Assembly: GCF_003334765.1 (NCBI RefSeq)
Contig: NZ_QOWT01000003.1
From: Escherichia coli
GTDB taxonomy: Bacteria > Pseudomonadota > Gammaproteobacteria > Enterobacterales > Enterobacteriaceae
Length of the DNA stretch: 64,000 nt
Reading direction: 5' to 3' (one strand)
The notes beneath the pieces are model-generated. The model had not been told where the DNA came from and did not search any database. It saw only the letters and a program-made list of their open reading frames with translations. Of the stretch, positions 1 through 5,098 are shown one piece after another. The position numbers were made by a program, and so were the translations under genes. Position 1 is the stretch's first letter, and each line of letters opens with the position of its first letter.

Positions 1-391
1 CTTTATTATGTCTGGTGACGCGGGGGGATAGAACGTCTGTGCATATAGTAGTGAATTTATTCAGGTCTACATTATTCTCTATTTTGGTCAGTTTTATGAG
101 TTCATTTACAGCCATACTCATTAAATCATCTGTTATCGAAAATTTATATATGCTCATAGCAGATAATATTGCTTGCTGAATTATCTCTTCAGAAATATCC
201 GCTATCTTTATTGACAAATCATGTGTTAGATATTTTCCTCCAAGAGATTCTTGTTCAATATAATTTAAACCAGACCCCATTGTGATTTTAACTGGATTAA
301 CGGATTTCTCTTCATTTTTCTTATTTTTGTTCTCCTGATCAGGAACTAATGGTTGCAGTGGTAGGCTATTATTAATATTTCGTGGCTTCAT
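1..391 (-). CDS. hypothetical protein, N-terminal part only (ORF runs off the left edge); possibly the ygeF-like gene of the ETT2 flank
   Basis: Hand translation of the minus strand from ATG at 389-391 gives about 130 codons with no stop (MKPRNINNSLPLQPLVPDQENKNK...); in-frame stop just upstream at 404-406; AT-rich, Lys/Asn-rich. Not in the ORF track because it is truncated. Confidence 0.3.
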   Translation of the reverse strand, partial: MKPRNINNSLPLQPLVPDQENKNKKNEEKSVNPVKITMGSGLNYIEQESLGGKYLTHDLSIKIADISEEIIQQAILSAMSIYKFSITDDLMSMAVNELIKLTKIENNVDLNKFTTICTDVLSPRVTRHNK

Positions 392-584
392 TTTACATTT
401 CTCTCATTTGATTAGAGCAAAATCCGAATTCGCAGCTTCTGATAATGTCAAATATCACCTTATGGAGACGTTACGTAGAATGACTATATTTGTTATCGGC
501 ACATTAGGGGTATTAATTTTAGTATTGATGGAAGGTGATTATTGAACAGTAACATCGAGTCACGGTAAAAATGTGAGGTATACA

Positions 585-1010
585 ATGGACATTGAATTTT
601 CGCAGATTCATGAAATGGTCTATATGCATGATATTGTAAATTCGGACTCGAAAAAGAAACCAAGGATTCCGTTAAAAAAATTCCTTAATGCTGAGAATGT
701 TCTCACGCAAACAACATCATGGACATTAAATTCAAGATATGTGAATGTTAATTCTGTCAATAAAGTCAACGTAAAGAGTAAAGTTAAAAACAGTTATATC
801 TCACGATCTGTCAATGATGAGTTTAGTTTAACAGATGATGAAATCAATTCTTTTAAAGAAACGTTAGTCCTTTCCTCTATTGATTCACTGAGTAAACTGG
901 TTCTTAATAATCCTCTTTCTGTATTGTTTACATCGACTGTACGAAGGAATAATAATCGAGCTAAGATGAATGTCGAGTTCGACTCATGGATTTGCACCAG
1001 ATGTTGTTGA
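585..1010 (+). CDS. yqeK: uncharacterised protein YqeK (ETT2-flank, AT-rich)
   Basis: ORF track 573..1010; ATG at 585 is preceded by GAGG at 574-577 and gives 141 aa, the K-12 YqeK length from memory; position next to yqeJ/yqeI/yqeH. Confidence 0.6.
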
Positions 1011-1045
1011 TACATGATATTTTACATTGCAAGGAGATGTCTAAA

Positions 1046-1126
1046 ATGAAAGATGTTGATCAAATCTTTGATGCTTTAGACTGCCATATACTGCGAGAAT
1101 ATTTAATTTTATTGTTTTATGATTAA
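1046..1126 (+). CDS. candidate small protein, 26 aa (MKDVDQIFDALDCHILREYLILLFYD), possibly YqeL
   Basis: AAGGAG at 1031-1036 sits 9 nt upstream of ATG 1046; short ORF in the convergent gap between yqeK and yqeJ; hand translated. Confidence 0.35.
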   Translation: MKDVDQIFDALDCHILREYLILLFYD

Positions 1127-1158
1127 CGAGGTTCCATCTTTTTGTTATCTATTTTAGT

Positions 1159-1641
1159 TTACCTTGCACAATGCATTATTGCTCTGTTACCAATGCTCAA
1201 AATAAAAGCATGCTTACCTTGCTTTAGTATATTATAGCTTACACTTTTTTCTGGAAAGACATAAAAATCAGGAATAAGTTGTGCAAGTCTATCATCATCA
1301 ACTTGATCCATAATCTCAAACTTATTAACTTTCTTTGATGTTAAATGGGCTGTGTCATAGTTTTCAATCCATGTGTATTCAATATTTCGCCGTATTGATT
1401 TACTTTCTCTGTTACCTTGTTGCCAGGTTCCACTCAACGCAACAGTTCCTGTTTTATTTTTTTTGTTATACATAAAGTCGATGGTAAGATTTGCTCGTCC
1501 CTGGTCATTAAAAATTACCCAATTTGCAGTGCATGTTTCGTTATATATCATTTTTTCTGCAGTGTAAGAATAGACAGTGAAGAGAATAAACCCACTGATA
1601 AAAACTAAAATAAATAATAAGTTTTTTTTATAATCAATCAC
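1159..1641 (-). CDS. yqeJ: single-pass membrane protein YqeJ (ToxS/FidL-like partner of YqeI)
   Basis: ORF track 1159..1653; GTG at 1641 preceded by GAGG gives 160 aa; N-terminal hydrophobic helix LLFILVFISGFILFTV then a soluble domain; overlaps the yqeI stop by 8 nt. Confidence 0.6.
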   Translation of the reverse strand: MIDYKKNLLFILVFISGFILFTVYSYTAEKMIYNETCTANWVIFNDQGRANLTIDFMYNKKNKTGTVALSGTWQQGNRESKSIRRNIEYTWIENYDTAHLTSKKVNKFEIMDQVDDDRLAQLIPDFYVFPEKSVSYNILKQGKHAFILSIGNRAIMHCAR

Positions 1642-2443: not shown

Positions 2444-2776
2444 ACGTCAATAAACACTAAATCAATCGAAATGGAGATCACATAGTTTGCTAAGTATATT
2501 GGTATTTACGGCATAAATATATATTAATTTTATATTTATCATGATGATTGAAATGAGGCTTTAATGTTGCAACGTAAAACTTTACGTAAATTAACATGGT
2601 TAACATTTATGCCACTATTGTTTGTAAATTCATATTTTGTAATGCTTCTGAATTTTTCGTGTGATGGTTTTAAATACTATGGTGTTTACTCTTGAGGGGA
2701 CGGCCTATTTATAAAATACGGACATTTCAATAAATGCCCGTATAAACAGAGTATGATTCTGGCTGGTCGTTGAGTA

Positions 2777-3409
2777 TCAATGTTGGACCGAATGTGAACG
2801 AATAAATAATTCGTTTATTTTACCACCCATTCTCTTTTCGATTCGTTGCTTGTACGCGTAGATGCTACGGATATCCATATCCAGAACTTCAGCAATCTGA
2901 TATGGATTATAACCAGAAACCATATACCCCATTATGGTGAATTCCATCTGAGTTAATGTGTTACCTCTGGTAAATGATAAATAACGACCAATAAATAGTT
3001 GTCTGATCTTTTCATTGGCAACATCAAGACCATCATCATTATATATGACAGCAGATATTGCTGAGTTGTGTTTTCGCCAGTAATTAGCTAACGATTGCAT
3101 ATTGCGGTCGCTGACTAAAACAATCCCCATGTCAGTACTTGCAAGATAGTCAATCCAGTCTTTTTCAAGGAATAGACGTAAAAAACTTACTGAAAAATCG
3201 ACAAAAATATATCCGCTTAATCTCGCATTGTGGTTTTTTGTTAAGATACCTTCTACCACACCACGATTAAAATATGAACTTTCTTCGGGCCACATACAAA
3301 AACACGAGTTTGCGCAATACTGCAAACGCGGTGACTCTTCTGGCATTATTTGGCAATGCATTGAGCAACTATTGCATGTAAGACTTTTATAACGACTACA
3401 AAGCCCCAT
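2777..3409 (-). CDS. yqeH: LuxR/GerE-family transcriptional regulator YqeH
   Basis: C-terminal LuxR-type HTH (NPYQIAEVLDMDIRSIYAYKQRIEKRMG); ATG at 3409 preceded by GGGAGG gives 210 aa; track ORF extends to 3469. Confidence 0.75.
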   Translation of the reverse strand: MGLCSRYKSLTCNSCSMHCQIMPEESPRLQYCANSCFCMWPEESSYFNRGVVEGILTKNHNARLSGYIFVDFSVSFLRLFLEKDWIDYLASTDMGIVLVSDRNMQSLANYWRKHNSAISAVIYNDDGLDVANEKIRQLFIGRYLSFTRGNTLTQMEFTIMGYMVSGYNPYQIAEVLDMDIRSIYAYKQRIEKRMGGKINELFIRSHSVQH

Positions 3410-3827
3410 GTTAAGAACCTCCCTATCCGTATATAATTGCATAATTTCATTGGTTATTGATGATGTCAATACACCATGATTTTGTAATTTTGCCGGGAAA
3501 AATTGCGATTAATCTGTATTTGCTATAATTCTGAGTAAGGCATTTAAAAATGCATTTCTCGTTATCAAATATGATTATGTTTCACTGATTTAATCTTGCA
3601 TGGTTGAGAGCGGTCCAGATAACTATCTCATGGTATAAGAATATCTATATCGCAAATTGTTTTTGAATGACCAGAAGATATCTTGCGAATCTAAGTTATG
3701 CATCTTAAATAGTCTTATTTAAGATGTTCAGATCTCTTTGTGTGTTTAACTAACTGATAATACTAGGATATGACGAGAGAAGTGATAGGGTGGAATAATA
3801 ACAAATGAATATTATGAAAAATGGAAT

Positions 3828-3854
3828 GGTTCAAAATTGTAGCAATTTTGAACC
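3828..3854 (-). terminator. hairpin just downstream of yqeG (perfect 11-bp inverted repeat ggttcaaaatt / aattttgaacc)
   Basis: Inverted repeat seen directly in sequence immediately 3' of the yqeG stop, followed by a U-rich stretch on the minus strand. Confidence 0.4.
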
Positions 3855-3868
3855 ATCCACAACTGATA

Positions 3869-5098
3869 TTAGCTAAAGAACATTACCGATACGCACAGGA
3901 TACCCACGATCAGCGTAATCAGATTTCCGATGGAACGCCAGGGTTTAAGCGCCGGGATGAGATACGTTGACAGCGTAGGCATGATGAAAAGTATCATGGC
4001 AATGAGCGGGCCGCTGATCGCGTAAATCATCGAAATCGCGTTCGGGTTAATGCAACAAACAATGAAGGTAATCAGCGATACCAACATAATTGATAGTGCG
4101 CGGTTAAATGCACGACTTTTCTTTACACCAACCTGCTGTAGTGTTGTTTTGACGACCTCTGTGGCACCTTCAATAACGCCAAAGTACGTACCCAGGAATG
4201 ATTTCGACATCGCAACTACTGCGACAATAATCCCGGAAATTGACAACCATGCTGGGGCGTTCGGCAGCATAGAAAGCGCCGATAAAATGGTGACCCCTTC
4301 TTCTTTAGCAGCTTCAATATACGAAGGTGGAATAGAAAGCAGGCAGCTAAAGACAAAGAACAGTACACTTATGCAGATGATGAGATAAGCGACTTTCATA
4401 ATTTTTTTGCATTTATCCATAGCGTGTTCGCCATATTTTTCACGTCTGTCTATGGCAAACGTAGAAATAATGGGCGTATGGCTAAAGGCGAAAACCATCA
4501 CGGGAATCGATATCCATATCTGGTGAAGGGTATTCTGATTGAACTCTACCTGGGTTGTTAATAGATCAGGTTGCCAACTACCGACAAGGTAAATGGAAAG
4601 AAATAAGAAATAGGCAATCAATGGGAATACCAAAAATCCCATTACCCGAATAGTGGCATGACGTCCCATCAGAAAAATGAGATTCAGAATTAATACAACA
4701 CCCAGACTCACCAACATACGGATGCGAAGATCAATAACCATATGCTTTGCCAGCTGTTCCGTAAGTGAGTTGGTAATTGCCACTGCATATATCAACACGA
4801 CGACAAAAAAGGCGATGAAGTACAGCGTGGTAATCAGATTACCAATCTTCTTGCCATAGTAGTGTGTTACCGCGCCCGTTATCCCTTCACCTGCTGATGT
4901 TTTTGATGAGAGGATGAACTGGCACAAGGCTTTATGTGGCCAATATGTTAAAGGCCAGGCGACCAGAGCAGTAATAAACAGGACCACAGCCCCTGCCGAA
5001 CCTAACTGAATAGGAAGGAAGAGCGTGCCTGCACCAACGGCTGTGCCGTAGAGCGCGAAACTCCACAGAGTTTCTTCTTTAGACCAAATATTAGACAT
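3869..5098 (-). CDS. yqeG: HAAAP-family (serine/threonine-type) amino-acid transporter YqeG
   Basis: 409 aa polytopic membrane protein; clear similarity to SdaC in this same window (LYGTAxGAGxLFLPI, VAITN motifs). Confidence 0.9.
   Translation of the reverse strand: MSNIWSKEETLWSFALYGTAVGAGTLFLPIQLGSAGAVVLFITALVAWPLTYWPHKALCQFILSSKTSAGEGITGAVTHYYGKKIGNLITTLYFIAFFVVVLIYAVAITNSLTEQLAKHMVIDLRIRMLVSLGVVLILNLIFLMGRHATIRVMGFLVFPLIAYFLFLSIYLVGSWQPDLLTTQVEFNQNTLHQIWISIPVMVFAFSHTPIISTFAIDRREKYGEHAMDKCKKIMKVAYLIICISVLFFVFSCLLSIPPSYIEAAKEEGVTILSALSMLPNAPAWLSISGIIVAVVAMSKSFLGTYFGVIEGATEVVKTTLQQVGVKKSRAFNRALSIMLVSLITFIVCCINPNAISMIYAISGPLIAMILFIMPTLSTYLIPALKPWRSIGNLITLIVGILCVSVMFFS

Follow-up and report, generated by a model that had tools for sequence, protein, structure and literature searches.

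The 64,000-nucleotide stretch of Escherichia coli DNA analyzed here (contig NZ_QOWT01000003.1, hereafter the window) opens with a run of AT-rich sequence to the left of the core gene yqeG. We conclude that positions 1-3694 are very probably the yqeG-proximal end of ETT2, the type III secretion system 2 locus of E. coli, a low-G+C, horizontally acquired island that resembles pathogenicity island 1 (SPI-1) of Salmonella and lies between glyU and yqeG, here in its decayed K-12-type form and consisting mainly of a regulatory module. Window positions 1-6600 are 99.96-100% identical to K-12-type chromosomes, with only three differing positions relative to strain ER1709. Gene names and positions were taken from the RefSeq annotation of these near-identical genomes, which names ygeF, yqeK, yqeJ, yqeI and yqeH here, the gene content that a first-pass annotation of the bare sequence had proposed. 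The features through yqeF are as follows.

1-391, minus strand: 5' part of the ygeF pseudogene (start codon at 391), cut by the window start; from the ER1709 annotation.
392-584, no strand: divergent ygeF/yqeK intergenic region with the scar of a 236-bp deletion, from alignment to O157:H7.
585-1010, plus strand: yqeK, an annotated 141-aa Lys/Asn-rich orphan open reading frame (ORF).
1046-1126, plus strand: putative ORF of 26 codons (WP_000655820.1) in the RefSeq annotation, G+C 0.26.
1159-1641, minus strand: yqeJ, 160 aa, predicted bitopic protein (Pfam PF27292, hydropathy, AlphaFold fold matches).
1634-2443, minus strand: yqeI, 269 aa, predicted ToxR/CadC/MarT-like membrane-tethered regulator (Pfam Trans_reg_C).
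2444-2776, no strand: yqeH-yqeI intergenic region, including the yqeI upstream region, matched by gene names to a published H-NS-bound promoter island.
2777-3409, minus strand: yqeH, 210 aa, predicted LuxR/GerE-type, EcpR (MatA)-like regulator (Pfam GerE).
3410-3694, no strand: yqeH upstream region and final island DNA, shared by genomes that carry the island and by Escherichia sp. E4742, absent from sequence type 131 (ST131).
3695-3868, no strand: AT-rich backbone, to which the empty site of ST131 aligns from 3695 on.
3869-5098, minus strand: yqeG, the core permease bordering the island, of the serine/threonine-transporter family (TIGR00814, 6.9e-155) and itself outside the island.
5353-6534, plus strand: yqeF, from the annotation.

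The first 3.7 kb proved to be AT-rich to a degree that far exceeds chance expectation. Segment 1-3694 has a G+C content of 0.345 (34.5%), about 9.7 standard deviations under the mean of 1105 equal-sized windows in 5099-64000 (mean 0.517, standard deviation 0.018, minimum 0.474), and all 500-bp windows from 1 to about 3750 fall at 0.31-0.41. Codon usage is set apart as well, with G+C at third codon positions of 0.22-0.38 in island genes and 0.48-0.65 in verified flanking core genes. Lys and Asn together account for 21% of YqeK and for 16% of both YqeJ and YqeI, compared to 3.5-11% in core proteins. The first-pass description, a start of about one-third G+C against about half elsewhere that carries Lys/Asn-rich ORFs, is borne out by these values. 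An Rfam scan of 1-4000 returned no RNA family even at E values up to 1, and a repeat search found short AT-rich chance matches only. Other short AT-rich stretches of the window, at about 8400-9000, 21300-21800, 56400-57200 and 62500-63100, are ordinary intergenic DNA.

Comparison with E. coli O157:H7 identified the island. The same genes occur there at 98.5% DNA identity and contiguous with SPI-1-like secretion genes, in an island that extends from glyU to yqeH. Gene order in O157:H7 (L003/L004) runs sctC through sctU, prgH-like genes, orgA, ygeH, ygeG, ygeF, yqeK, yqeJ, yqeI, yqeH and yqeG, collinear with the window, and between the same two junction motifs the island measures ~27.5 kb, of which ~23.6 kb (sctC-sctU, the prgH-like genes) lies beyond the position of the window start. 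Published work describes ETT2 as 29.9 kb of 36.9% G+C, versus 50.8% for the chromosome, beside glyU and spanning ECs3703 (yqeH) to ECs3737 (PMC3977695, PMC11068852), with yqeH-ygeF listed as ECs3703-ECs3707 (PMC3977695). The segment belongs to ETT2 itself, being its terminal part in a degenerate isoform, so that of the earlier label "ETT2-flank remnant" the ETT2 identity stands and the word "flank" does not.

The K-12-type island is ~11.7 kb long, and the ~8.0 kb to the left of the window start hold ygeQ, IS2, an orgA fragment, pseudogenes, ygeI, ygeH and ygeG. We met no secretion-apparatus genes in ER1709 (99.96% identical), only the orgA fragment, IS2 and pseudogenes left of the window, which makes the locus a remnant rather than a secretion system; the apparatus-less state is expected for the K-12 isoform.

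The right-hand border was placed using an empty site. In ST131 the tRNA gene glyU is followed directly by yqeG, and the order actS - glyU - (island or nothing) - yqeG is common to ER1709, O157:H7 and ST131. In an in-register comparison, ST131 matched the K-12 left flank up to ...GCAATGCAATC and then the window from 3695, with firm identity from 3702, and Escherichia sp. E4742 is collinear with the window across 3694/3695 into the island. Together these two comparisons put the island/backbone junction at 3694/3695, with a seven-base ambiguity to 3701, 174 bp before the yqeG stop codon (stop at 3869). Positions 3695-3868 are accordingly AT-rich backbone and not island, holding a terminator-like hairpin for yqeG at 3824-3858 on the minus strand (16 pairs, then a T-run). 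The compositional edge lies further on, as G+C rises from 0.32 at 3801-3900 to 0.50 at 3901-4000; yqeG itself is intermediate at 0.445, and the contrast with the core is therefore sharp only on a 100-bp scale. The sharp end at yqeG (3870) given in the first-pass annotation thus holds for composition (yqeG 3' end, ~3900) but not for the island, whose true junction is 3694/3695. On the left, the start of the window truncates the segment, and the island extends further in that direction.

Two observations concern the glyU side, outside the window. Directly downstream of glyU, K-12 is missing 78 bp that occur in both ST131 and O157:H7 (L001 5963-6026 vs L002 7859-8000). In strain 90-1 (L007 2645-3859), a tyrosine recombinase and phage-like genes adjoin the glyU side of the locus, and on this basis glyU may be a recurrent integration site.

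We next consider the distribution of the island across 5426 complete E. coli genomes. A query with window 1-6600 matched yqeG-yqeF in 5420 of them. Segment 1-3694 had a match in 4124 genomes (3579 at 80% or more covered) and was wholly missing from 1302, while the ygeI-ygeF block matched in 3596 (3513 at the same coverage) and the 10.7-kb apparatus block sctC-sctU in 3275 (937). The regulator end of ETT2 is therefore kept ~four times as often as the complete apparatus block. Its absence from 1302 genomes, the ST131 empty site and the low G+C uphold the proposal of horizontal acquisition. Other truncation endpoints fall at 1127, 1412, 2170, 2859 and 3459, often beside insertion sequence (IS) elements. 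One truncated isoform has the structure ygeQ' - IS3 - yqeH' in strain 90-1, which showed its real structure; the BL21(RP) assembly, with murB and phage genes beside truncated yqeH, was uninformative. Elsewhere in the window, coverage reaches 80% or more for 3695-28500 in 5416 genomes and for 53001-64000 in 5037, and 28501-53000 is found in all genomes with its match split at a tRNA-Met repeat. At this resolution the remainder is core by population coverage, and the segment is, as first described, the only accessory-like part of the window.

Within the segment, yqeI and yqeJ form the best characterized unit. YqeI residues 28-102 match an OmpR/ToxR-type winged helix (Pfam Trans_reg_C, 4.1e-9), with ToxR DNA-binding domains as the best solved relatives (8b4b, 1.6e-7) and a weak match to CadC in NCBIfam. 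Hydropathy and cysteine positions indicate a hydrophobic segment at about 156-175 followed by a C-terminal domain with Cys246/Cys258. The 3' end of yqeI overlaps the start of yqeJ by 8 nt. YqeJ, assigned in precomputed Pfam data to family PF27292 (YqeJ_C), has a membrane helix at residues 8-26 by hydropathy and a conserved Cys37/Cys158 pair. We searched a YqeJ AlphaFold model, built from nine sequences, against 350,542 PDB chains; the top six fold matches were to ToxS (8u2f, 8alo_B) and VtrC (5kew, with chain 5kew_B, and 5kev), and of the seven best matches six were to these two proteins, at TM-scores (by target length) of 0.60-0.67 on a low-confidence model. YqeI and YqeJ thus fit a ToxR/ToxS-type pair, YqeI contributing the winged helix, a predicted single membrane segment and a C-terminal, predicted periplasmic domain, and YqeJ being the adjacent downstream bitopic protein with a modeled lipocalin-like periplasmic barrel. 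Consistent with this, published work assigns YqeI/YqeJ to the co-component systems of the ToxR/ToxS and VtrA/VtrC kind and treats the pair as an orthologue of SPI-3 MarT/FidL, the co-expressed periplasmic domains of the two proteins give a dimeric complex, and fast evolution is typical of this co-component class (PMC9214523).

Two homopolymers in yqeJ vary in length. At 1449-1457 the window has T8 at 1457 and ER1709 has T7, which underlies a frameshift annotated in ER1709; we considered a frameshifted yqeJ in the window and rejected it, as the T7 of ER1709 is not shared. Near the yqeJ start (about 1622-1630), the coding strand reads A8 in K-12 and A9 in O157:H7, a difference that alters the in-frame start codon (GTG or TTG); either start overlaps the end of yqeI.

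The second regulator, YqeH, has a LuxR/GerE helix-turn-helix at residues 151-195 (Pfam GerE, 6.6e-5), and its residues 31-202 align with the whole EcpR profile (NCBIfam, E 1.7e-20). These domains and the winged helix of YqeI agree with the first-pass suggestion that yqeH and yqeI encode regulators. The N-terminus of YqeH carries seven cysteines in residues 1-38 (C4, C12, C15, C19, C32, C36, C38; window 3296-3409), all seven of which are kept in Escherichia sp. E4742, and this stretch may be metal-binding or redox-sensing.

The remaining genes are less informative, and no function could be assigned to yqeK, the ygeF pseudogene or the 26-codon ORF. ER1709 ygeF is annotated as frameshifted (L001 13902-14391, corresponding to window -98..391); the gene is a pseudogene in K-12-type genomes and an intact 163-aa ORF in O157:H7, and YgeF matched no NCBIfam family. 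YqeK had no NCBIfam, Pfam or PDB match, all 62 of its 62 database relatives with a source name come from E. coli, and we identified no homologue outside this species. The 26-codon ORF is called yqeL, in K-12 nomenclature, in PMC12460168. Between ygeF and yqeK, O157:H7 and other lineages have 236 extra bp between two copies of the 9-bp repeat TATCACCTT, which K-12-type genomes lack; the window holds a single copy at 453-461, where the BLAST pieces overlap. The loss, in the control region between the divergent ygeF and yqeK, has the appearance of a deletion by slippage.

Sequence divergence within E. coli, measured against strain 7CC (96.5% DNA identity), points to constraint on the three regulatory genes. 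yqeH shows 9 synonymous and 0 non-synonymous differences (p 5e-7), and the ratio of non-synonymous to synonymous divergence (dN/dS) is 0.09 for yqeJ (p 6.5e-6) and 0.26 for yqeI (p 4e-4). In the comparison with Escherichia sp. E4742, yqeI has a dN/dS of 0.14 and yqeJ one of 0.12, compared to 0.008-0.03 in flanking core genes; yqeG, at 98.3% identity, gives 0.015. These ratios make a clear case that yqeH, yqeI and yqeJ are under purifying selection within E. coli, and yqeI and yqeJ also between Escherichia lineages, with the YqeI/YqeJ pair appearing constrained yet fast-evolving. In avian pathogenic strains, deletion mutants of the regulators are reported to have altered motility, biofilm and virulence (PMC7552227, PMC9014576).

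The E4742 locus (L008 7772-12600) reads yqeG - yqeH (two ORFs) - yqeI - yqeJ - ygeH - glyU - actS, an islet of 33.7% G+C with no secretion genes, yqeK, ygeF or ygeG at the locus, in which yqeI and yqeJ are intact and yqeH is disrupted. A Logan contig (L009, 1-2840), which ends just upstream of yqeJ, has the same yqeJ - ygeH - glyU arrangement. Compared with E. coli, the minimal islet proteins show 89-95% identity for YqeH and 62-72% for YqeI, YqeJ and YgeH. A near-complete ETT2 is reported in E. albertii (PMC11068852), by which the minimal islets are more simply explained by deletion, and we read them as probable further deletion products. Together, the minimal islets and the population gradient point to preferential retention of the ETT2 regulator end.

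Expression of the segment has been addressed by others. A "promoter island" between yqeH and yqeI (entry 2986202_358, Table 1), which we placed at 2444-2776 by gene names rather than by published coordinates, was H-NS-bound in all chromatin immunoprecipitation data sets compared (PMC3661553). A yqeG-ygeL fragment served as a model H-NS hairpin region, and expression of the neighbouring ygeH increased about 5-fold when hns was mutated and about 150-fold when stpA was mutated as well (PMC12460168). Silencing of the segment by H-NS/StpA in laboratory K-12 is thus documented in the literature (PMC3661553, PMC12460168).

Based on these results, we propose that ETT2 has decayed to ~11.7 kb in this K-12-like genome, the window showing its last 3.7 kb. 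The overlapping yqeI/yqeJ genes would be probably translationally coupled, YqeI being a putative ToxR-like membrane-tethered winged-helix activator and YqeJ its putative ToxS/VtrC-like periplasmic beta-barrel partner. By the mechanism we infer, YqeJ would bind the YqeI periplasmic domain and so pass an extracytoplasmic signal to the DNA-binding domain. The yqeH product would be an EcpR-like regulator of the LuxR type. From the literature, H-NS/StpA filaments on the AT-rich DNA would silence transcription in laboratory K-12. In this scheme, the present analysis supplies the segment's identity and borders, its distribution in the population, its domain content and the evidence of purifying selection; the silencing, the heterodimer and the phenotypes in avian pathogenic E. 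coli come from the literature.

A further step can be offered tentatively. yqeI-yqeJ, with yqeH in E. coli, might be an autonomous module that is selected independently of the secretion machinery and kept in K-12-type genomes and, as intact yqeI and yqeJ, in at least two diverged Escherichia lineages with an islet confined to yqeH'-yqeI-yqeJ-ygeH, acting as a ToxRS-like sensor of envelope or gut signals that controls chromosomal genes outside ETT2.

Several results weigh against parts of the proposed account. The tRNA gene glyU lies outside the window, and both glyU and the remaining island are inferred for this genome from near-identical ones. A sigma-70 consensus scan found 18 promoter-like sites versus 20.5 +/- 3.8 in dinucleotide shuffles, no excess, so the promoter density of the region follows from its composition. 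The YqeJ model has a mean predicted local distance difference test score of 57.7, which is low confidence. A Pfam-A search with YqeJ gave no significant family, including no "FidL-like" match, and the YqeJ-FidL link therefore rests on PMC9214523. YqeH scores 73.8 bits against the EcpR profile, for which the curated NCBIfam cut-off is 300, so that by this measure it would be EcpR-like and not an EcpR equivalog. Purifying selection against strain 7CC was not significant for yqeK (dN/dS 0.31, p=0.06) or ygeF (dN/dS 0.57).

Three other explanations were weighed. The one that survives best, although we consider it unlikely, holds that the yqeH-yqeI-yqeJ end is a separate SPI-3-like regulatory islet of the marT-fidL type, fused with or older than the SPI-1-like secretion cluster. 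PMC9214523, citing Ren et al. 2004, takes YqeI/YqeJ as orthologues of Salmonella SPI-3 MarT/FidL; the E4742 and L009 lineages have only yqeH', yqeI, yqeJ and ygeH by glyU, with no secretion genes; and the fourfold better retention of the regulator end would also be accommodated. However, the segment is contiguous with ETT2 DNA of the same composition in every E. coli genome inspected, the minimal islets retain ygeH, whose product is of the HilA type of regulator that characterizes SPI-1-like islands, and the near-complete ETT2 of E. albertii makes deletion the simpler origin of the minimal forms.

It is somewhat less probable still that the segment is a decaying, non-functional leftover whose ORFs are out of selection and await deletion. 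The ygeF pseudogene of K-12-type genomes, the lack of significant purifying selection on yqeK and ygeF, the 236-bp deletion and homopolymer length changes, the many independent IS insertions and truncations in other strains (the endpoints given above) and H-NS silencing in K-12 all fit such decay. They are countered by yqeH, yqeI and yqeJ, which are intact and under clear purifying selection, extending for yqeI and yqeJ between lineages, and by the phenotypes reported for the avian pathogenic deletion mutants. A low G+C native to a core region of regulatory and membrane-protein genes, without horizontal acquisition, has almost no probability left: the core gene yqeG is just 44.5% G+C and the window has other short AT-rich intergenic stretches, but this reading is already contradicted by the presence/absence data (1302 genomes without the segment yet with yqeG-yqeF, and a precise empty site), no equal-sized window elsewhere falls under 47.4% G+C, and in O157:H7 a secretion island runs collinear with the segment.

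Some observations concern the core part of the window. At 43262-43338 the window carries one tRNA-Met gene instead of the three that ER1709 has in tandem with a spacing of 110 bp (metZ, metW, metV), and so is without 220 bp; as 28501-53000 matched as one contiguous place in only 251 of the 5426 genomes, the single copy is either a minority form or an assembly-collapsed repeat. In the recC-argA stretch (28501-43340), some strains, such as O26 RM10386, carry a ~5.5-kb insertion with a phosphotransferase system (PTS) EIIC gene (H84, H85) that is absent from the window. Known small RNAs above Rfam gathering thresholds are OmrA and OmrB, ES036 (CssrF) and GcvB (14560-14843, 44766-44808, 47824-48029).

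The island end described here is already known in detail, and the main value of the analysis is correct annotation of the one part of the 64-kb window that is foreign and probably silenced, all else in it being core. To this it adds, modestly, the exact junction at 3694/3695, counts over the 5426 genomes, purifying selection on yqeH, yqeI and yqeJ, and the survival of yqeI and yqeJ in a cryptic lineage. Taken together, these additions favor the existing picture of ETT2 regulators as co-opted.

Compared with known systems, the locus shares with ETT2 of O157:H7 Sakai the glyU-yqeG site, the gene order yqeH-yqeI-yqeJ-yqeK-ygeF, 98.5% DNA identity and low G+C. It differs in that the K-12-type island is ~11.7 kb rather than ~27.5-29.9 kb, has no apparatus genes, contains IS2 and a frameshifted ygeF, and shows the 236-bp ygeF/yqeK intergenic deletion and A8 rather than A9 at the yqeJ start. 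YqeH resembles EcpR (MatA), a LuxR-type protein that regulates the operon for the E. coli common pilus, in its whole-profile alignment and C-terminal GerE helix-turn-helix; its Cys-rich N-terminal stretch is a point of difference, just residues 31-38 of it falling within the EcpR-aligned region. Unlike the ToxR/ToxS, VtrA/VtrC and MarT/FidL pairs, the K-12 YqeI/YqeJ pair lies within DNA silenced by H-NS, where no cognate secretion system remains, and sequence comparison detected no similarity between YqeJ and ToxS or VtrC. With these pairs it nevertheless shares a predicted tethered winged-helix activator followed by the overlapping gene of a bitopic protein, conserved cysteine pairs in both partners, and a modeled YqeJ periplasmic domain that is closest to ToxS and VtrC structures.

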